From assembly GCF_051058965.1 (NCBI RefSeq), contig NZ_CP183924.1: 64,000 nt of DNA; one strand, 5' to 3'. Shown here one piece after another: positions 25,295-56,800 of the stretch. Both the position numbers and the translations under genes were made by a program. Under the pieces are notes generated by a model. That model did no database searches and was not told where the DNA came from. It saw only the letters and a list, made by a program, of their open reading frames with translations. This stretch comes from Corallococcus exiguus. Lineage in GTDB: Bacteria > Myxococcota > Myxococcia > Myxococcales > Myxococcaceae. Within the stretch, counting starts at the first letter, position 1. Every line of letters begins with the position of its first letter.

Positions 25295-27013
25295 CTACTT
25301 GTTGATGCGCACCATGGCCACGTCGTAGTGGCGCTCGGTCACGTAGCCGTTCGCGGCCTTGCCGGGGCGGTACATGTTCCCGGTCTTGTCATCCACGTAG
25401 AAGCGGTTGTTCGGGTTCGTGTCCTTGCCCGTGCTGGCGTTCTTCGTGCCCGGGTCGTGGAACGTGTAGTAGGTGCGGCCCTTGTCGTCGACGCCGCGGC
25501 CCGTGATGGTCACGAAGTGGTCCGTGAGGCCGTCCGCGTTGTAGGTCGCGTCCTTGTGGCTCACGCCCACGACCACCGGCTTGCCGGCCTCCAGCTGCTT
25601 GTCGATGTAGCTGCGGCCCTCGGCGGCCTTCTTCGAGTCCACGTTGAGCGCGCCGACGCCGTTCTCGCTCTTGCCCACCTGGATGCGGCGGTCCGGGCCC
25701 AGCACGGTCGCGCCGGAGTCACGCGCCATCGCCGTCGCGGCCTTGAAGCACGCCGTGTCGCTCGCGGTGTAGCCGTGGCCGTTCTCGAACTGGCTGTAGT
25801 ACGGCACCTTCACGTGCACCGCCGGCTTGTCCTTGGACGGGGCCACCTGCTCCGTGTTCGCGGGGGCCGCCTCCGTGGTGGGCTTGGAGGTGTTCGTGCC
25901 CTGCGTCGTGGGCTTGCCTTCCGTGGTGCCCGGCTTCGAGCCGTTGTTCACGGACGGGGGAACCACGCCCGTGTTGGTGTTGGCCGGCTTCGTCGTGGTG
26001 CCCGACTTCTCCTGCTTCAGCATCGCGAGGGCGTCCTTCGCCTCCGACTTGAAGCGGTTGGCCACGCCCTTCTGCACATCCTTGGAGCTGCCGGAGAAGT
26101 GCACCAGGGTGCCGCTGGCGTTGGTGCGGCCGCGCTCGGCGTAGATGTCCTTGATGAGCTGCTCGTCGCTCACCTTCGCGGGGTCACGCCCGTTGAGCGC
26201 CTTCTTGAAGATGTCATCCGCCTTGCCCGGGCCGTGCTGCACGGAGGTGGACCAGGCCACGTCTCGCAGCGCCGCGGAGCGCTTGTCCAGGTCGATGCCC
26301 GTCGCCTTCTTGATGTTGGCGGCGCCCGCGTCGTAGTGCGTGGTCTTGATGTAGTCGTGCTGCGCCTTGTCGAAGCCCTTCGGGTCCTTCGCGGCCAGCT
26401 GCTTCCACGCGGCGGAGAACTCCGCGGTGCCCGGCTTGCTGCCCGACAGCGCCTTGTGGAAGTCCGGGTTCGTCTTCTTCAGCGAGTTGACGAACGACTG
26501 CGCGGACCCGTTCGCGGAGGCGAACTGGTAGGAGCCGTAGGACACGCCGCCCTTGTCACCCTTGCCCGTGGACACGGTGCCGGGGCCGCGAGCCTCGTAC
26601 TTGCGGCTCAGCCCGCCCAGTTCCCCGTTGGTCGCGCTGCTGGAGGACGTGTTCGTCGCGGGCGTCGTCGCCTTCGCGCCGTCCGTGGACTGCGTGAAGC
26701 TGTCGCCCGACGTCTTCGTCCCCGCGCTCGACTTGTTGGTGCCCTTCGTGTCGAAGCCGTCCTGCACCTTCAGCGTCTGGCCGGCCAGGATCTTGTTCGG
26801 ATCCTTGATGTTGTTCGCCTTGGCCAGCGCGTCAACGGTCGTGTTGTAGCGCTTCGCGAGCCCGGAAAGCGTGTCGCCCGAATTGACGCGGATGTTGGAG
26901 ACGGTCACGGAGAAGACCCCTCTATGTCTGGCCGCGACCAAAGGCGCCGCGGACGTGCTTGGATTGACCGGATTATCGAAAGGCAATGCGATCAGTTTCG
27001 CATTCCCAGTCAC
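25295..27013 (-). CDS. LysM-domain protein with a central unknown domain and a C-terminal C39-like (papain-fold) cysteine peptidase domain. Candidate peptidoglycan-targeting hydrolase or effector.
   Basis: LysM reads [48 protein letters not shown]. Low-complexity T/S/G linkers follow. The C-terminus carries [28 protein letters not shown], a Peptidase_C39_2-like YYSQ...C motif. Codon usage looks atypical (Lys/Asn/Thr-rich), and the flanking intergenic region is AT-rich. Confidence 0.65.
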
Positions 27014-47722: not shown

Positions 47723-47725
47723 GCG

Positions 47726-50125
47726 TCAGGCGGCGCGCGAGCCCTTGTCCTCGAAGTAGGCGCGGCGGGCGCGGGCGCAGGTGGGGCACTGCCACTGCAC
47801 CAGGGTGAGGTGGCGGTCGCCCAGGACGACGGCCTCGTGGCGGAGCGACTCCCGAGGGGCCTCGCTGGTGGCTCCGCAGGCGCAGCGCAGCCGGTCCAGC
47901 GTGGAGAGCAGCTCCTGGGGGCTGGTGATGGGGATGGCGGACCCGGCGCTGTCGCCCCGGTGGTCCGCGTCGAACTTGCGTGCGAAGGCGCGGCGCCGGC
48001 CCCAGGCGCGGCCCTTGCGCCAGAGCGCCACCGGGCCGCCCTGCGCGATGACGAACCACAGCACGAGGCACGTCGCGATGACGCCCAGGAGGATGACACC
48101 CGCCTCGCCGGACGGAACGGACGAGGCCTGGTCGCGGGCGGCCCGGCTCCTGAGTTGGATGGCGTAGCCGCGCTGGGCTTCGGTGGTGCGCACGGCCTTC
48201 ACGTACTCGGCGATGCGCTCGGGCGGGACCGAGTCCGCGGTGCTGCGATAGCTGTAGTCGAGCAGCAGCGTCTTGCCTTCGGCGCGCGTGTCGGCCACGA
48301 AGCGGAAGGCCGGACCGTCCACGACCTCGTACTCCGTTTTGACAGGGGGCAGCTCGCCGGCCTTCAGCGTGATGCGGTGGCGGGCGAAGACGGGGTGCTC
48401 CACCTCCAGTGGGTAGGCTCGGTGGGAGTAGTTCGGCACGGCGAGGTGCTGTCGCAGGCCATGCGCGCGGAACTCCCGGCGACCGTCCGAGGTCCAGAAG
48501 TCCTCGATGCGGTAGTGCTCTTGCGTGACAAGCACGTTCGTCACGGTGTCGTCGTCCACCGTCAGGGGCTTCGCGATGGAGATGTTCGCGTCCGTCTTCG
48601 CGTAGTAGTTGAAGTAGAGGCGGGACACCTCGGACAGGGACGTGCCCGCGAGCGCGCGGCGCATGGAGTTGGCGGCCGCCCCCGTGCGCGTGGTGACGAC
48701 GTCGAGTGTCGCGGCCCCGTCGCGGCCCATCGCGACGTAGGTCTCGTCCACGAAGATGGAGGGCTCCGTCAGCGTGGGCGTGGGGATGACGGAGAGCGCC
48801 GTGGTGGCGGGGGCGACGAGGAGGGCCCGGCCGTAGGAGGGCGGCTCGTAGCTGTCGAGCCCGCCGCGCTCCAGCGCCGCCGTGGGATCCACCCACAGCT
48901 CGCGGCCAGCCACGGTGGCGTGGACGATGACGTGGTTGAACGCGGTGGCGGTGGGACGCAAGCCGTCCAGCAGCTGCGTGAGGTCCGTGCTCACGAGCGC
49001 CGGCTGCGCGTCGATGCCCAGCCCCTTGAGGAGCGACACCAGGAGGAGCGACTTGTCCTTGCAGTCGCCGAAGCGGCGCTGGAGGACCTCGTCGGGCGGA
49101 TGGGGCTGGTGGGAGTTGGCGCCCATCTCGATGCCCAGGTAGCGCACCTCGTCCTGGACGAAGCGCAGCGCGGCGAGGAAGCGCGCCTCCGGGGTGGGCT
49201 CCTTCGAAAGCCGGCGGACCTCCTGCTCCAGCGACTTCGAGCGGGCGGGCACCTGGAACAGCGTGGAGGCCCAGCGCGCGACGTCGTTCCAGTCCTTGTA
49301 TTCGCTGAACTGGATCCACGGGTAGACGGGCTGCCAGCCGGGGACGTTGTCCTCGTGGCGGACCGCGGGCACGTGGTGGCGCTCCAGGATGATTTCACGT
49401 TCGCCATTCAGCATCGACTCCGAGCGCGACAGGCCCGGCGCGGCGAAGTCCCGGATGAAGAGCGTGCGCCCCCGCCCTTCCGGCCACAGCAGCCGGTAGG
49501 CGAAGTGGACCACGGGATAGGAATGGCCCACGCCGACGACGTCGGAGAAGCGTCCGCCAAAGACGGGGTTGGCGCCTTCGAAGGAGTACGCGACCTCCAC
49601 CGTGTCGCCCACGCGCACGTCGCGGAGGAAGGGCACCACGGAGAGGTTGCCGTTGTAGAGCCGGTTCTGGAGCTCGGTCTCCTGCTGGATGACCCGGGCC
49701 TCGGCGGGCTGGAAGACGTCCTCGCGGCGGCCGTCGCGGATGCGCCAGATGCCGTGGACGGTGAGCTTCTGGTACGTCGGATCGAAGCGGAACTGGATGT
49801 CCGTGACGCGGTCGATGCCCCGCGGCGAGAGGACCTTCTGGGCCGAGTGCAGGTAGTGCTCGCGCGATGGGCCGGACACGCGCACCTGTTCCTCGATCAG
49901 CAGCCGGGAGACGCTGGTCTCCTCCTCGCCCTCGGGCGTCGGGCCGGGGTCTGGAGGAATGGGAAGCGGCTTCACCCACGCGGCGGGAGGCCCGACGCGG
50001 AACGGCCTGGCGTTCGTCGCCGCCGGTGCCGCCCCGGCGCTCAAGGACAGACACAGACACAGCAGCAGGACGGACACCGGAAAGAAGTCCGGTACCAGGA
50101 GGACGGAACGGAAGGTTCGGCGCAT
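47726..50125 (-). CDS. DUF3857 + transglutaminase-like domain protein with a C-terminal TM segment and a Cys-rich zinc-ribbon-like tail
   Basis: Signal MRRTFRSVLLVPDFFPVSVLLLCLCLSLSAGAAP. The transglutaminase core is RRFGDCKDKSLLLVSLLKGLGIDA. The late TM is GVILLGVIATCLVLWFVIAQ. The tail reads ...CACGATSEAP...CPTCARARR. Confidence 0.7.
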   Translation of the reverse strand: MRRTFRSVLLVPDFFPVSVLLLCLCLSLSAGAAPAATNARPFRVGPPAAWVKPLPIPPDPGPTPEGEEETSVSRLLIEEQVRVSGPSREHYLHSAQKVLSPRGIDRVTDIQFRFDPTYQKLTVHGIWRIRDGRREDVFQPAEARVIQQETELQNRLYNGNLSVVPFLRDVRVGDTVEVAYSFEGANPVFGGRFSDVVGVGHSYPVVHFAYRLLWPEGRGRTLFIRDFAAPGLSRSESMLNGEREIILERHHVPAVRHEDNVPGWQPVYPWIQFSEYKDWNDVARWASTLFQVPARSKSLEQEVRRLSKEPTPEARFLAALRFVQDEVRYLGIEMGANSHQPHPPDEVLQRRFGDCKDKSLLLVSLLKGLGIDAQPALVSTDLTQLLDGLRPTATAFNHVIVHATVAGRELWVDPTAALERGGLDSYEPPSYGRALLVAPATTALSVIPTPTLTEPSIFVDETYVAMGRDGAATLDVVTTRTGAAANSMRRALAGTSLSEVSRLYFNYYAKTDANISIAKPLTVDDDTVTNVLVTQEHYRIEDFWTSDGRREFRAHGLRQHLAVPNYSHRAYPLEVEHPVFARHRITLKAGELPPVKTEYEVVDGPAFRFVADTRAEGKTLLLDYSYRSTADSVPPERIAEYVKAVRTTEAQRGYAIQLRSRAARDQASSVPSGEAGVILLGVIATCLVLWFVIAQGGPVALWRKGRAWGRRRAFARKFDADHRGDSAGSAIPITSPQELLSTLDRLRCACGATSEAPRESLRHEAVVLGDRHLTLVQWQCPTCARARRAYFEDKGSRAA

Positions 50126-50303
50126 GGAGGAAGGGCGCTCATCATGGAGCCCGGATGACGCGCCGGGCAAGGCGCCCCCTGGGACACCGGGCGAGCGGCC
50201 CCGCTTCATTCACCAGTGAAAACCGTCATGCAGGCCAAGCCTGGAATTGCCGTGACACGGGCTAGGGTTCCGGCCATCGGTTGGAAGGCCCAGGAGGCTG
50301 GCG

Positions 50304-51272
50304 ATGGTCAACGTGAGGCAGGTCGCGACGCGGCTGAAGAGTGCGTTCCTGGCGGACCCGGAGCGCTTCTATACGAACGAGACAGGGGCCTGGGTGGCGG
50401 GGATGCCGGCGCCGAGCGACATCCGGGTGACGACGGGCCGGGAGCCCTTCTGGATCAACCTGGGCTACTGGAAGCACGTGGAGAAGGTGGACGACTCCAA
50501 CGTGGAGCGCGTGGGGGAGCTGTTCCGGTCCGCCCAGGCGGAGATGGCGCGCCTGTTGGCGAGGACCGCGAAGCTGGGGCCTGGGGATGCCGTCTTGGAC
50601 TGCGGCTTCGGGTACGCGGACCAGGACCTGCTGTGGGCGGAGGAGTTCAAGCCCGCGAGCATCGTCGGGGTGAACATCACGCCGAACCAGGTGAAGGTGG
50701 GCCGGGAGCGCGTGAAGCTGACGGGGTTGGAGGGCGTGGTCCGGCTGGAGGTGGGGAGCGCGACGGCGCTGCCGGGGCTGGAGGGAGCATTCGACGTGGT
50801 GTTCGCGCTGGAGTCCGCGATGCACTTCCGGATGCGGCAGGACTTCCTGCGCGAGGCCTTCCGGGTGCTGAAGCCGGGAGGCCGGCTGGTGATGGCGGAC
50901 ATGGCGCAGAAGACGGACCGTGAGGCTGGAGCAGGACTCCGAGCGCGGCTGCGCTACCGCTACTGGCGGGGGCTGATTGCCTTCCCGGAGGAGAACGTCT
51001 GGTCGACGGAGCGCTACCGGGAGGAGCTGCGGCGGGCGGGGTTCCAGGACGTGAAGGTGGAGTCCATCGCGGAGGATGTGTACCCGGCGGTGAACACGGC
51101 GCTGGTGGCGCTGCGGGGCATGACGCAGTTGGAGAGGCAGCAGGGAAGCACGTCCCTGCACCAGGTGCGCGCGGACGTGCACAAGGCGATGCGGATGACA
51201 CCGGAGCAGCTCCAGTGGCCCGCGCTGTTCAACTGCGACGAGTACGCCGTGGTGTCCGCGCGCAAGCCGTGA
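50304..51272 (+). CDS. Class I SAM-dependent methyltransferase
   Basis: Motif I is VLDCGFGYADQ. Motif post-I/II is VVRLEVGSATALP...FDVVFALESAMHF. LKPGGRLVM is also present. Confidence 0.8.
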   Translation: MVNVRQVATRLKSAFLADPERFYTNETGAWVAGMPAPSDIRVTTGREPFWINLGYWKHVEKVDDSNVERVGELFRSAQAEMARLLARTAKLGPGDAVLDCGFGYADQDLLWAEEFKPASIVGVNITPNQVKVGRERVKLTGLEGVVRLEVGSATALPGLEGAFDVVFALESAMHFRMRQDFLREAFRVLKPGGRLVMADMAQKTDREAGAGLRARLRYRYWRGLIAFPEENVWSTERYREELRRAGFQDVKVESIAEDVYPAVNTALVALRGMTQLERQQGSTSLHQVRADVHKAMRMTPEQLQWPALFNCDEYAVVSARKP

Positions 51273-51314
51273 CGGTGGTTGACGGACTGGGGCGGAGCGG
51301 CGGTAATCGGAAGC

Positions 51315-51413
51315 GGTAGGGCCTCCGGACCTGGTGGCCGGCCCGGTCTTCAAAACCGGTGAGGGGCTGCGAGAGCAGTCCCTGGCGAGTTCGATTCCCG
51401 TGCCCTACCGCCA
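51315..51413 (+). tRNA. selC: tRNA-Sec (selC-like; anticodon UCA)
   Basis: I folded it by hand. The acceptor stem is 8 bp (GGTAGGGC / GCCCTACC) with discriminator G and an encoded CCA at 51411-13. The D-stem is CCGG/CCGG. The anticodon stem is CCGGT/ACCGG with loop cTTCAaa (TCA at 51350-52). The variable arm is long, 8 bp (GGGGCTGC-gaga-GCAGTCCC), resembling E. coli selC. The T-loop is TTCGATT, with one A.C mismatch in the T-stem. Total length 99 nt. Confidence 0.6.
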
Positions 51414-51507
51414 TCTGCTTGCGGCCTGATGTCAGAGCCGCAGACGCGACAGGCCTTGTCTGAGGATGGACAGGTAATTGACGGCCAGCGTGTCGTAGCG
51501 GGAGCCA

Positions 51508-53790
51508 ATGGCACGCTTGTCCGTACTCCGTGCCGATGGATGCAGGTCCGTGACCGGGTACCCCGGACCGGTTATACGTCCCCCGTTCACCAGGGGAGAC
51601 ACCGTGTCCGAAGAGTTGGAGGTCGCTAGCGCATGCTGGTTGCTGTTCAAGAAGGCGCGGGAGTGGCCCTCCAAGAAGCTCTTCGCCCGCAGCTACCCCC
51701 ATTGGGCCGCCCCCGTCCTGAGCTCCCAGAAGAAGTGGCCCCACATCCATGTCAGTAGCGAGATCAGACCTGACTGGGAACTCCTCTTCATTCTTCCGGA
51801 GACGCGCACCCTCCTCGCCCCGCTCCCTGCATTCATCCGTGATGTGGCCGCCCGGGTCGTTGCGAACCCCATTTATCGCAACGATCATTCATCGCGGTTG
51901 AACCTCACGCTGAAGGACTTCGAGCGATTCTGGAGCAACGCCGATACAGCCAGGCTCGCGGCAGATCTGCTGACCAAGCTGTGGAATCCCTGGCTCGGCT
52001 GGGGAAGCTCAGATTCGGAGGGCGTCAGGTTCCATCCACACCTGGATGTACTCCGATATGAGCATGTCCAGGGGCTCGACGAGTTGCTTCAGCAAAGCCA
52101 CCTGCCGCCGAGCGGCGCCCAGAAAAAGGTCGCCGAGCCCGAAGGCACGTATCTGCAGCTCCTGCACCGGATTCACGAGCATCTCAAGCGAACTGGCACC
52201 TGGCCCGAGGCCGTTCCCTTCACGGTAGCGCACCGCGACCTTGGCTTCATCCCGGATCTCGTCGACCGGCTTGAACCCGAGTTCATCCGGAGAGCATGGA
52301 AAGGGACACGGGACGAGAAACTCAAGCTCACCTTCAAGAGCCTTGACCGGGTCACATCCGCGCACGAACGACACCTTCTCGCTCAGGCAGTCCGGGCCAT
52401 GGCCCAGATCTGGCTGGACACGGATGAGCCCGATTCCAACTTCGGCATCACCGCCGAGATGGTTGCGCATGAATCGAAGCTTTCGCAGGCAGAGGTGGGC
52501 CCCTTGTTGCGATACCTGGAGCAGGCGTTCTGGGTAACAATCGAGCCCTCGGACTGGGTGGAACAGCCCTGGAAGTTACTGGTCAATGACAAGATTGGCC
52601 TCCTGAAGAACGTGGAGATCTGGGAGGATTATCTCCGAGCCATCCAAGAGGAGGAAAAAGCTCAGCACCATGCGGTAATCAGTTCGGTTGATCTGGAACG
52701 ACTCGCCAACGTATCAGAAGGCTTTTTCGCACCAGCCCGCGAGCCGCCCGCCCTGGGTAAGAAAGGGCGCAGCCGACGCGCCAAGAAGGCAAAGCCGATA
52801 TTCATCAGCCATGCCGCGAAGGACAAGGAGCTTGTCGATGCCTTCGTGGAGCTTCTTGTGTTCGGAATGGGCGTCGACGCCGACGACATGGTCTGCAGTT
52901 CCCTGAGTCAGCAGGCTGTTCCATTGGGAAACAAGTTCAGGGATTACCTGAGAGATTCCGTCAATGGCTGCTCCCTGTTCATCTGCCTCGTCTCCAAGAA
53001 CTTCTACGCCAGCACGTTCGCTCTTTGTGAAGTCGGTGCGGCCTGGGGCGCAAATAAGATCATTGTCCCCGTGATGGTGCCTCCCCTGGGGCCAGAGGAT
53101 CTGGAAGCCGTGCTCCAAGATGGATGGCAGGCCGTCGAGCTACTGAATGGCGACCAGTTGGCACAAGTGGAAGGACTTCTCCGCAAGCACCTCGGGGGTA
53201 CTGGCGACATCGGCCGCTGGAACCACCAGCTTCGGAAGTTCCTGAAAACGGCTCGGGAAGTGGGGCAGGATGCCTCCAGAGATGCTTCAGGCCAGGACAC
53301 TCACTCACCTGAGCGCGCAGGTCATGACATACACAAGCAAGCAGGAGCGTCTTCCAGCGTCCGAAATGTCCAAGCCTCTGACCCGCCGGACTGGCAGACC
53401 TTCGTGAAGCTTGTTGGGGCGGTAAGAGCGGCCAGCGAACCGCTCTCTCCCGTGCTGCGAGCGGCAGCCTATGCGACAGGCTCTGGAATGGCGGGAGAGG
53501 TTATCGGCAGAGATTACAAAGACATCCGTGACGCTGAAGACCGCGGCATGCTCGTGTTCGACGCGAACAAGTTCTGGGCGGACGACGACAGCCGGCTCAT
53601 GCGCAGTGTTGTCGAGCCCTTCAATGCCTTGAAAGGCTTCCTCCAGCAGGCAAGCGATCGCTTCCACCTTGAGCACGAGAAACGATACGGGTTTGTCGCG
53701 GATATGCAGAAGCTGCGATTCGCGGAAGTACACATTGGGTTCAGCTGGGTCTACGGCACACCGGATCCGGACGACAACATCCCATTCTGA
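51508..53790 (+). CDS. Large (about 760 aa) hypothetical protein with a central TIR-like domain. It is the first gene of the post-tRNA island.
   Basis: A central block reads KKAKPIFISHAAKDKELVDAFVELLVFGMGVDADDMVCSS...GNKFRDYLRDSVNGCSLFICLVSKNFYASTFALCEVGAAWGANKIIVPVMV. This is the TIR_2-like pattern (FISH...D, then SKNYxxSxWC.E). I could not assign the N-terminal approximately 430 aa or the C-terminal approximately 230 aa. GC is noticeably lower than in the flanks. The start is uncertain (ATG 51508 or GTG 51604). Confidence 0.55.
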   Translation: MARLSVLRADGCRSVTGYPGPVIRPPFTRGDTVSEELEVASACWLLFKKAREWPSKKLFARSYPHWAAPVLSSQKKWPHIHVSSEIRPDWELLFILPETRTLLAPLPAFIRDVAARVVANPIYRNDHSSRLNLTLKDFERFWSNADTARLAADLLTKLWNPWLGWGSSDSEGVRFHPHLDVLRYEHVQGLDELLQQSHLPPSGAQKKVAEPEGTYLQLLHRIHEHLKRTGTWPEAVPFTVAHRDLGFIPDLVDRLEPEFIRRAWKGTRDEKLKLTFKSLDRVTSAHERHLLAQAVRAMAQIWLDTDEPDSNFGITAEMVAHESKLSQAEVGPLLRYLEQAFWVTIEPSDWVEQPWKLLVNDKIGLLKNVEIWEDYLRAIQEEEKAQHHAVISSVDLERLANVSEGFFAPAREPPALGKKGRSRRAKKAKPIFISHAAKDKELVDAFVELLVFGMGVDADDMVCSSLSQQAVPLGNKFRDYLRDSVNGCSLFICLVSKNFYASTFALCEVGAAWGANKIIVPVMVPPLGPEDLEAVLQDGWQAVELLNGDQLAQVEGLLRKHLGGTGDIGRWNHQLRKFLKTAREVGQDASRDASGQDTHSPERAGHDIHKQAGASSSVRNVQASDPPDWQTFVKLVGAVRAASEPLSPVLRAAAYATGSGMAGEVIGRDYKDIRDAEDRGMLVFDANKFWADDDSRLMRSVVEPFNALKGFLQQASDRFHLEHEKRYGFVADMQKLRFAEVHIGFSWVYGTPDPDDNIPF

Positions 53791-53839
53791 AGTCGTGGGT
53801 CAGTGACAGTTCCCCCTGTTCATTCATGGAGACATCCTC

Positions 53840-56800
53840 ATGAGCGGCACGGCCCCCAAGAGCTGGGATCTCTTCCTCAGCTACAACAGCAGAGACCATG
53901 CGCTCGCGACGAAGCTGGCCTACCGCCTGCGCAGTGAGGGGCTCCAGCCGTGGTTCGACAAGTGGGAGCTGATTCCAGGGGAACCGTGGCTGCCCGCTGT
54001 AGAGCATGGAATCGCAGAGTGCCCATGCATGGTGGTGTGCATCGGAGCCTCTGGCTGGGGGCCGGTCCAGGACGCCGAAGCCCAGAACGCACGGATTCGC
54101 GCCATGCTCGACAGCAAACGACGGGTCATCCCAGTGTTCATGGCCGGAGTCGAACAGGTCGAGCTTCCAGGGCTGCTGAAGAACCTGGCGTATGTTGACC
54201 TCCGAGGGAACTCCGACGAGGAGTTTCGACGATTGACCCTGGCGATTGGAGGCCTCACCGCCAAACCGAGACCCGCGACCGTCGGCGATTGCCCCTACCG
54301 GGGGCTGCAACCCTTCGAAAGCCGGCACGCCGGGATGTTCTTCGGCAGGCAGGAAGATGTCTCGGGCCTGCTCGACCGGCTAGGTCGCGCACAGCGCCTG
54401 CTTCTCATCGTGGGCCCCTCTGGGAGCGGTAAGTCGTCACTGGTCATGGCGGGGCTGCTTCCGGCGGTCGCTTCCGGGCAGCTCCATGGCTCGTACGACT
54501 GGCGTGTTGTCAGCGTGCGCCCGGGGGTACGGCCCTGCCATGAACTCGCGGTGGCCCTGGGCAGCCTTGATGAAACGCCGCCCGCGGACGGGGTGGCTCG
54601 CCTCCAGGCTCGCCGCAAGTGTTTGCGTGAGGACCCCGAGTCACTCAGCGACCAGGTGGACCTCCTGCTTCAACAGCTGCCGCGCGCTTGTCGGCTCCTG
54701 TTGCTTGTCGATCAATTGGAAGAGGTGTTTTCGCAATGTCAGGACAGCGCAGACCGAGAAGCCTTCCTGGCCAACCTCGTACATGCGGGGACCATCGCAG
54801 GAGGTCGCGTGCATGTCGTGGCGACACTTCGCTCGGACTTCCTCGGTCGCCTTCAGGAGTGGCCCGGAATCGCAGGGCACCTGAACGGCTCCACATATCT
54901 CATGCGCTCGATGGCCGAGGCCGAGCTGCATGAAACCGTGGCACAGCCAGCGCAGCTCTCTGAACTGCGCTTCGAGCCGGGGCTCATCGAGGAGCTCCTC
55001 ACCGCGGTGCGCGCCCAGCCAGGTGACCTCCCCCTGCTCCAGTTCACGCTGCTCCAGCTTTGGAAGGAGCGCCAGGGAGACACGCTCACCTGGGAGGCCT
55101 ATGAGCGCATCCGTCGGCTGAAAGGGGCCATCACGCGCAGCGCGGAGCAGTGCCTCTTGACGCTCACGGAGCCCCAGCAGTCCTTGGTCCCACGGGTGTT
55201 CCGTCGACTGGTTATCGTCGGCGACGAAACCGGCGACACGCGCCGCCGCGCTTCTCGTGAAGAACTCGAAGCCCTTGGAGCAGAGGTCCCGATAATCCTC
55301 GAGCGCTTCATCTCCGAGCGCCTGCTGGTGGCCAGTGACGGTCTGGTGGAGTTGGCCCATGAAGCCCTGGTGCGCGGCTGGGAGCGACTCCGCGAATGGC
55401 TGGAAGAGGAGCGAGAGCTCCTGATGCTGCGCCAGGAGGTCGAACGTGCTTCGGAGGCATGGCGGCGCTCCGGTCAGTCCACCGACGAACTCTGGAGGGG
55501 CAGCCGTATGTCGCGGACTGGGGAGCTGAAAGACGCCCTGGCTCCCCTTCTCACCGAAAGGGAGCGGGCCTTTCTGGACGAGTCGAGAGAAACGCTGCGC
55601 CGCGACACCGAGCGTGCCGATCTGGCCGTGGCGAGGATGCTCGCGATGCGCTCGGCACAGGTGCGTCCACATCGCCCCATGCTGTCCGTGCTGCTGGCCC
55701 GCGAGGCGGTCAGGCGCTACTCCCACCCCGAGACGCGCTCGGAGCTGTACGCCGCACTGCTGGACAGCCCACTGCGCGAGGTCATCCAACTGGCGGGAGG
55801 AGCAAGAACCGGACAGCCATTGTTCCGTCCGAGCCCTGATGGGGCGACGTTCTTCGTGTGCTCAAGCGGTATGGCGGCACTTGTGTCGCGGGCTGGGAAG
55901 CTCATCACGGAGCTGCCCGTGAAGAGCCTCGACGTGAAGTTCGTGAGATTCAGTCCGGACAGAGAGCGGCTCGCAGTCATTCCCACCCAGCGCGTCGAGG
56001 GAATCGCGGCGTGGCTCTTCAGCGCTCGCGGAGAACTCATCTCCACACTCCGGGATGGCGGTTCTCAAGAGCCAACCGACTGTGCAAGCTTCAGTCCGGA
56101 TGGGCAGCATCTTCTGACCGCGCGCAGCGATGGCGCCGTGCGACTGTGGAATGTCGCCCTTGGCCATGCTGCGTATCTGCCCACCGGTGTAGGCTTTTCC
56201 TACGGACACTTCAGTCCAGACGGAACGAGGCTGCTTACGCTGTCCTCCGAAAGTCGTACAGCGAACCTATGGAGCACCGAAGGTGAGCGGCTCCACGAAC
56301 TGAAGGGGCACGAGCACCGAATCATCCATGGAAGGTGGAGCCCGGACAGCACCCATGTCCTCACGAGCGCAAGGGATGGTACCGCACGCATCTGGGACCG
56401 GGATGGCAAATCCATTGCGACACTGACCGGACACGCTGCTCCGCTCACCTATGGCTCTTTCGACCCTTCAGGCAGCCGCGTCCTTACGGTCAGTGAGGAC
56501 TCCACCGCGCGGCTCTGGGATTTGACGGGCAAGAGCCTCCTCATTCTTCGTGATGCGACCCGGGCGCTTGAGTTCTGTTCCTGGAGCCCCCAGGGCCGGC
56601 ACTTCCTGACCTGGAACCAGCATCAACTGCGCATCTACCGTGACAGTGGCCGGCTCCTCACCACGCTTCAAGAACACGAGGTGCCCGGGCGCGACCATGC
56701 AACGTGGAGTTCGGACGGAGCGTCGCTGATGACGTCGCACGCCGGCAGACATGACAAGGAGGGGCCTGAGATCCAGGTCTGGGCCGTGGAACCCGCGCCG

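Follow-up and report, generated by a model that had tools for sequence, protein, structure and literature searches.

The window analysed here is a 64,000-nucleotide stretch of Corallococcus exiguus DNA (assembly GCF_051058965.1, contig NZ_CP183924.1), which is ~89-93% identical to that of other Corallococcus species. Ordinary Myxococcaceae chromosome genes, encoding valyl-tRNA synthetase (ValRS), NadC, GroEL, response regulators, chemotaxis proteins, an M1 peptidase and a SAM methyltransferase, fill the first 51.3 kb. They are followed by selC, the gene for the selenocysteine tRNA (tRNA-Sec), and by an island of lower GC content. The visible part of the island is 12.6 kb long, and all of its genes are of the TIR, STAND, WD40 or TPR-S type. 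The features of the locus are listed in Table 1.

Table 1 Features at and around the selC locus of the C. exiguus window.
Feature	Position	Strand	Evidence
Class I SAM methyltransferase, 322 aa, GC3 0.94, last native-composition gene before selC	50304..51272	+	Pfam Methyltransf_11/31/25, GC3, synteny
selC, tRNA-Sec	51315..51413	+	ARAGORN, Rfam RF01852, covariation in 24 homologues
Junction, synteny break	51414..51603	.	blastn, junction sequences
Low-GC island (GC ~0.62, GC3 0.66-0.75), leaves window	51414..64000	.	Composition, comparison with C. exercitus L036
TIR protein, 728 aa, SpbK-like TIR domain at aa 399-523	51604..53790	+	Pfam TIR_2; PADLOC spbK 1.7e-28
TIR-nSTAND1-WD40 NTPase, 1384 aa	53840..57994	+	Pfam nSTAND1 9e-114, TIR_2 2e-22, WD40
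TIR-WD40 protein, 1232 aa	58264..61962	-	Pfam
ThsB-like TIR protein, 138 aa	61959..62375	-	Pfam ThsB_TIR 1.8e-6; PADLOC ThsB 2.5e-6
MAP3K_TRAF_bd (DUF4071) + TPR-S protein, 453 aa, ATG at 63749	62388..63749	-	Pfam 9e-45, 5e-24
Further ThsB-like TIR gene, 3' end only, truncated where the window stops (product of 128 aa in C. exercitus)	63929..64000	-	blastn, 96% to L036rc 10924-10996

ARAGORN identified a single tRNA in the 64-kb window, a 99-nt tRNA-SeC with a TCA anticodon. A covariance-model scan with Rfam 15 likewise returned a single match in the whole window, to RF01852 (tRNA-Sec), which covers 51315-51409 and, at 70.5 bits (E=2e-12), exceeds the gathering score of 47. The acceptor stem consists of 8 bp, all Watson-Crick (G1-C95 to C8-G88); the discriminator is G96 (G73), and the CCA is encoded at 97-99. 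The UCA anticodon occupies tRNA positions 36-38 (window 51350-51352) within the 7-nt loop CUUCAAA, and the variable arm features an 8-bp stem (G49-C68 to C56-G61, one G-U) capped by a GAGA loop. The five positions of the T stem are G-U, C-G, G-C, A-C (a mismatch) and G-C, and the acceptor and T domains together span 13 positions in the bacterial 8/5 arrangement. The D stem forms 4 of 6 pairs in the Rfam register and is drawn with 3 bp by ARAGORN; when base 15 is bulged, it comprises 6 bp, 5 of which covary across homologues. No promoter or terminator sites were found in a scan around selC.

Positions 51315-51413 are thereby confirmed as a genuine bacterial-type tRNA-Sec gene. The sequence-only reading had folded by hand a 99-nt tRNA-Sec with an 8-bp acceptor stem, a discriminator G, an encoded CCA, a UCA anticodon in a cUUCAaa loop and a long 8-bp variable arm. 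Each of these elements is present in the ARAGORN fold and the sequence, and the tRNA predictor proposed there as a check recovered the tRNA-SeC at the same coordinates, in agreement with the RF01852 match above the gathering score. The gene shares with the E. coli selC archetype and RF01852 the UCA anticodon, the 8+5 bp, the long variable arm, G73, the CCA and its single copy, but differs from the bacterial archetype in the conserved A-C mismatch of the T stem and in the bulged base 15 of the D stem.

A search pattern based on the anticodon arm and T arm of selC retrieved 35 genomes (27 Myxococcota and 8 Actinomycetota), and ARAGORN called a tRNA-Sec in all of them. Twenty-four of the 35 homologues were aligned, and pairs were counted on an explicit 8/5 cloverleaf. 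Pairing was observed in 93.2% of the cells, versus 41-49% after sliding the 3' partners by 1-3 columns. Both sides had changed in 14 of 32 pairs, and none of 500 shuffles reached the observed covariation score. In the variable arm, 6 of the 8 pairs covary. Since the search pattern fixed both the anticodon and the T arm, these arms are uninformative on covariation, and the signal stems from compensatory changes in the acceptor, D and variable arms. The eight actinomycetotal loci (L003, L010-L012, L015, L018, L027 and L035, from Actinoplanes, Jatrophihabitans and others) have anticodon and T arms identical to those of the Myxococcaceae and differ from them in the acceptor, D and variable arms. 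Conservation of the tRNA-Sec structure across 27 Myxococcota genomes provides indirect support for a functional gene.

In the Actinomycetota retrieved by the same search, selC is found beside genes of the selenocysteine machinery. For instance, selA adjoins selC in 5 of the 8 loci (Jatrophihabitans, Mycobacteriales and uncultured Actinomycetota MAGs), and selB is also present in 4 of those. In contrast, the window selC adjoins neither gene. No selA, selB, selD or formate dehydrogenase gene was detected in the 64-kb window, either by Pfam searches of the 35 ORFs upstream of selC and the 5 island ORFs or by motif scans. SelA, SelB and SelD motif scans of all retrieved loci, which were taken as 8-kb blocks in the relatives, placed selA or selB beside selC in actinobacterial loci only, and in none of the Myxococcaceae loci. 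According to Romero et al. 2005 (PMC1273633), the Sec-decoding trait has SelC and SelB as its signatures. One tRNA-SeC is listed in the genome annotation of the myxobacterium Archangium gephyra (PMC5441343), and this is all that our search of published work on myxobacterial selenocysteine returned. We infer that the window tRNA reads UGA and serves in the insertion of selenocysteine.

The mismatched T stem, a D stem that needs either a one-base bulge or two mismatches, and a 64-kb window in which no selenocysteine machinery is seen could also reflect a decaying selC, or a non-Sec tRNA such as an opal suppressor or a pseudogene, in a lineage that does not use selenocysteine. We regard this as highly improbable. 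The Rfam score lies well over the gathering threshold, the acceptor, D and variable arms have undergone compensatory changes, and a tRNA-SeC has been reported in another myxobacterial genome (PMC5441343). Moreover, the A-C mismatch is invariant, even in Actinomycetota in which selC adjoins selA and selB, and is therefore a feature of the lineage rather than a mark of decay.

Composition changes at the 3' end of selC. GC content per kb ranges from 0.65 to 0.76 (mean ~0.70) over 1-51 kb, whereas it ranges from 0.59 to 0.66 (~0.62) over 52-64 kb. GC3 similarly falls from 0.93-0.96 in five measured upstream genes to 0.66-0.75 in five downstream genes. Homology to the relatives is lost at the same place, as blastn matches of 27 Myxococcota loci to the window end at 51410-51425. 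The downstream DNA of the window is common to none of these 27 Myxococcota reference loci, and none of them encodes the island proteins either. Two proposals of the sequence-only reading, that selC marks an island boundary and that it sits exactly at the GC transition, therefore hold: homology and composition both switch at the 3' end of the gene, and GC and GC3 both drop straight after it. The switch is not always flush with the tRNA. In three Corallococcus loci (L036, L009 and L033) a short semi-conserved stretch, CAACCGCCCTG, is found just past the CCA, so that some synteny breaks fall 10-25 nt past the tRNA rather than within it.

The 5' side of selC is also variable. A segment corresponding to 47723-50150 or to 47723-51276 is missing in some Corallococcus species, and the methyltransferase gene that precedes selC is accordingly present in some species of the genus and missing from others. 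The DUF3857/transglutaminase gene at 47726-50209 is missing from C. exercitus SDU142 and C. sicarius, and C. terminator lacks both this gene and the methyltransferase gene. In Myxococcus and Pyxidicoccus, an unrelated stretch of ~1.7 kb takes the place of the 47723-51276 genes. These variable 5'-side genes are still native in GC3 (0.93-0.94).

Three proteins encoded further upstream have unusual architectures. A bacterial homologue, 758 residues long, of the Major Vault Protein of eukaryotes (30833-33109, minus strand; MVP_shoulder 1e-44, with Vault, Vault_2, Vault_3 and Vault_4 repeats) is encoded amid core genes. The valyl-tRNA synthetase (34701-38195, minus strand) carries a C-terminal tail of ~110 residues (aa 1048-1160) resembling histone H1 / HC2. 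A 572-residue protein (25295-27013, minus strand) is a fusion of LysM with a T6SS VgrG3-like C-terminal region of the peptidoglycan-hydrolase type.

DNA located downstream of selC in the relatives is not only unrelated to the window island but also mutually different, except in a few small groups. An integrase and a DUF3854/DUF5906 primase-like gene are among the first genes found after selC. Others encode a cNMP-binding Pycsar-type TIR effector, a ResIII helicase, a type I HsdR, an IS21-like transposase, Ser/Thr kinases, an AlkZ-like glycosylase and a 2101-aa eCIS-core/UCH protein. The last, which combines an eCIS core with a ubiquitin C-terminal hydrolase domain, is the product of the first gene past selC in C. 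exercitus AB043A (L017 698-7003, plus strand). In two Archangiaceae-like MAGs (L026 and L030), the downstream genes, for an aminotransferase and, judged by eye, a dehydrogenase, look core-like. As the downstream cargo differs among species, the 3' flank of selC is a hypervariable hotspot within the Myxococcaceae.

In three species, M. vastator, C. interemptor and C. llansteffanensis, a 381-aa tyrosine integrase gene starts ~110 nt past the CCA. The element at selC features, in addition to the integrase, an HTH_17 excisionase-like gene and a primase-like gene. DNA downstream of selC is 93-97% identical among the three species, whereas the upstream flanks are unalignable between genera and 82% identical within Corallococcus. 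Near-identical sequences downstream of diverged flanks are the signature of a mobile element that has landed repeatedly at one site.

A sister copy of the element was identified in Corallococcus sp. CA047B (L037), in which a 95%-identical integrase has no intact tRNA beside it. Instead, the integrase is abutted by a 66-nt fragment of tRNA-Sec (L037 9824-9889, E=3e-21) that corresponds to positions 34-99 and extends from the anticodon loop as far as the CCA. The variable arm of the fragment is of the M. vastator/Pyxidicoccus (Myxococcus) type, though the host is a Corallococcus, and the fragment must therefore have travelled with the element. Fragment and integrase sit between Ser/Thr-kinase genes, and the element either occupies a secondary site or belongs to a tandem array. 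A 44%-identical member of the integrase family in M. stipitatus is likewise adjoined by a tRNA-Sec fragment, 33 nt in length. The occurrence of the integrase next to a 3' fragment of tRNA-Sec in the sister copy identifies selC as a true attachment site in the Myxococcaceae. The role of selC as an integration site, which the sequence-only reading had drawn from other bacteria, thus extends to this family, as evidenced by the integrase elements and the 66-nt fragment.

Mobile elements sometimes carry tRNA genes, and the L037 element does carry a piece of tRNA-Sec. On these grounds, the tRNA-Sec gene could itself be regarded as cargo of mobile DNA, borne outside the core chromosome. Such a reading is very unlikely, as the copy borne by the element is only a 3' fragment, in which ARAGORN calls no tRNA. 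The intact tRNA-Sec, in contrast, is linked to the same upstream core genes (GroEL, a response regulator and a TPR-zincin) throughout Corallococcus, Myxococcus and Pyxidicoccus, irrespective of the DNA that follows it. selC is accordingly treated here as a chromosomal gene that serves as a target.

Of the 71 members of the integrase family, all those for which an organism is named are myxobacterial. No match to the integrase was found among 50,697 phage records, and no attR was detected in the relatives within the 8-kb blocks. In Corallococcus sp. AB011P (L038), a dense array of degenerate direct repeats of 59 nt and 118 nt, ~4 kb long and with no called genes (13600-17600), is located 2.5 kb downstream of a related integrase. 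The simplest reading of the fragments is that attP copies the 3' two-thirds of tRNA-Sec, and strand exchange would then take place at or near the anticodon loop. Such an arrangement is used by several subfamilies of tyrosine integrases, in which the att sequence covers a tRNA between its anticodon loop and its 3' end, a sublocation reportedly included in the scheme of Williams (2002). Like other tRNA-targeting tyrosine-integrase elements, the element of the relatives carries tRNA positions 34-99 beside its integrase and restores an intact tRNA when it inserts. It differs from them in that the target is tRNA-Sec, and the element is not present in the window.

The island genes of the window encode proteins of varied architecture. 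The product of the first gene, the 728-aa TIR protein, is 100% identical to WP_434300344.1 of Corallococcus exiguus. The GTG start at 51604 is backed by this identical 728-aa NCBI protein and is preceded by the motif GGGGAGA. The protein is nearly an orphan: only 3 proteins match it at E<=1e-10 among 5.8 billion, all of them from Corallococcus, and ~400 N-terminal and 200 C-terminal residues match no recognised domain. In the 1384-aa protein, TIR_2 (aa 12-132) is followed by nSTAND1 (152-548) and by WD40 propellers that start at residue 719. The gene for the 138-aa ThsB-like protein overlaps the start of the TIR-WD40 gene by its last 4 nt.

The MAP3K_TRAF_bd/TPR-S protein is 96% identical to its C. 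exercitus homologue (P0001). Its family is large (7287 matches at E<=1e-20), and identity is ~60% over Acidobacteriota, Nitrospirota, Gemmatimonadota and Myxococcota, an unusually high figure for such distances. A conserved two-gene module made of a TIR gene and the MAP3K_TRAF_bd/TPR-S gene was considered and rejected, as the latter occurs alone, with no TIR neighbour, in both distant genomes checked.

PADLOC returned domain-level matches on the island and no system call. The five island genes share their domain content with the SpbK, Thoeris ThsB and TIR-STAND (Avs-like/nSTAND1) systems, and are clustered in a variable, low-GC island. The 1384-aa protein has the layout of TIR-STAND (nSTAND1) NTPases, with an N-terminal TIR domain, a central STAND module and a C-terminal repeat sensor. 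A Thoeris system was rejected, as ThsB-like TIR genes are present but no ThsA partner is. SIR2, SLOG and Macro domains were not found by Pfam in any island gene, even at E<=1. TIR paralogues of the island are only 20-31% identical to one another, which argues against recent local duplication. Judging from their domains, the TIR genes are predicted to encode NAD-consuming or signalling immune or conflict proteins, which would act in defence.

A second copy of the island was identified in C. exercitus GCA_013116705 (L036). This locus was reached via the 96%-identical homologue of the MAP3K_TRAF_bd/TPR-S gene and was used as a proxy for the DNA beyond position 64000. Alignments obtained with blastn revealed the end of the methyltransferase gene and tRNA-Sec at 92.5% identity; the same island comes next, at 89-92%. 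As the divergence of the island is close to that of the flank, its acquisition is old. The two copies differ in two respects. A 763-bp segment located right after the L036 tRNA, which includes a 136-aa ThsB-like TIR gene, is missing from the window, and most of the TIR-WD40 gene (58845-61948) is missing from the C. exercitus copy. Past the point at which the window ends, L036 carries three more TIR genes, and up to nine TIR-containing genes are found in the window and the C. exercitus copy together. Between 13.4 and 13.9 kb, GC3 in L036 is back to 0.84-0.95, in genes for CCP_MauG, FGE-sulfatase, PNPOx, an aminotransferase and an NRPS. The return of native composition indicates that the island is bounded on both sides. 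By analogy, the island, ~13 kb long in C. exercitus, would measure ~15 kb in the window genome, of which ~2.4 kb with three TIR genes would lie past the window. Two other C. exercitus strains (L007 and L017) carry different cargo at selC.

In Enterobacteriaceae, selC is the site of islands and prophages such as LEE, PAI-I of UPEC 536, SHI-2, SPI-3 and the retronphage phiR73. These islands typically retain a P4-type integrase beside selC, together with direct repeats that match the 3' end of the tRNA. The window island resembles them in consisting of atypical DNA located directly 3' of selC, with cargo that differs by strain. In contrast, it has neither integrase nor repeats, and its cargo is of the TIR/STAND immune type, whereas theirs is related to virulence. 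The integrase found at selC in the relatives belongs to a family specific to myxobacteria.

Pfam, PADLOC and tblastn searches with the relatives' integrase revealed no integrase, transposase or recombinase in the visible 12.6 kb of the window island, and the complete C. exercitus copy likewise has none. Searches for a partial tRNA copy (attR) gave nothing beyond chance, either in the window or in L036, whose sequence includes the right border. A 13-mer of the tRNA, CCCTGGCGAGTTC, recurs at 62003; this candidate attR was rejected as a chance match (E=0.16), as it shows no extension and lies inside a TIR ORF. A search for an empty site, in which the right flank of L036 was compared with all of the relatives' selC loci, gave no match. 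The traits of a genomic island that the locus does display are its position against the 3' end of a tRNA, atypical composition and variable presence, in that it was found in one further strain and in none of the 27 Myxococcota reference loci. Integrase and att repeats define a classical integrase-borne island. As neither is found in the window island, we infer its integration, and refer to it as an integrase-less island that occupies a demonstrated hotspot of attachment at selC.

The most likely history of the island is an old integrase-mediated insertion, followed by the loss of integrase and attR. Tyrosine-integrase elements would attach via the tRNA-Sec sequence that extends from the anticodon loop to the CCA, and insertion would rebuild an intact tRNA, with foreign DNA placed straight after the CCA. 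The window island may have arrived by such an insertion, and its integrase and attR would have been lost later.

The position of the tRNA might, however, be incidental. The region could be a hotspot of accessory genes that are exchanged by homologous recombination between conserved flanks, or a locally diversifying native TIR/STAND family whose lower GC would be a trait of the gene family rather than a sign of foreign origin; in neither case would an integrase ever have been involved. Such an origin would fit the lack of integrase, att repeat and transposase in both the window island and the full C. exercitus copy. It would also fit the presence/absence of genes upstream of the tRNA (47723-50150 or 47723-51276), the near-equal divergence of island and flank, and the many downstream cargos of relatives with no visible integrase inside the 8-kb blocks. 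We nevertheless consider it unlikely. In each of the 27 Myxococcota loci, the break lies no more than ~12 nt from the tRNA's 3' end, and in three species the exact site is used by an integrase element with a tRNA-Sec-derived att sequence. In addition, the TIR paralogues are too divergent (20-31% identity) for recent local duplication, and the GC3 shift is large (0.60-0.82 versus 0.93-0.96). Taken as a whole, the locus is thus read, with good though not full confidence, as a chromosomal selC with a hypervariable 3' hotspot, which is the att site of an integrase family and now holds a TIR/STAND island.

selC itself is routine, and the locus is an ordinary, clean case of a tRNA gene used as a landing pad by mobile DNA. 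A bolder view, which we put forward tentatively and hold to be somewhat less probable than its opposite, is that the 3' flank of selC is a major, previously undescribed defence/conflict hotspot of the Myxococcaceae, seeded by a myxobacteria-specific family of tyrosine integrases with an attP that mimics tRNA-Sec between the anticodon loop and the CCA; the all-TIR island might then be a multi-TIR immune cluster whose members co-operate, rather than a chance accumulation.

Positions 34-99 of tRNA-Sec provide a concrete and testable candidate for the attachment site of a myxobacterial integrative element. Integration at attB sites has been described for the myxophages Mx8 and Mx9 (PMC11610982), and an att sequence based on tRNA-Sec could join those of Mx8 and Mx9 as a third tool for site-specific integration in Myxococcus and Corallococcus genetics. 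selC is one locus at which Myxococcaceae strains exchange immune-type cargo, and offers a handy point from which to mine these large, social, predatory bacteria for defence and conflict systems.
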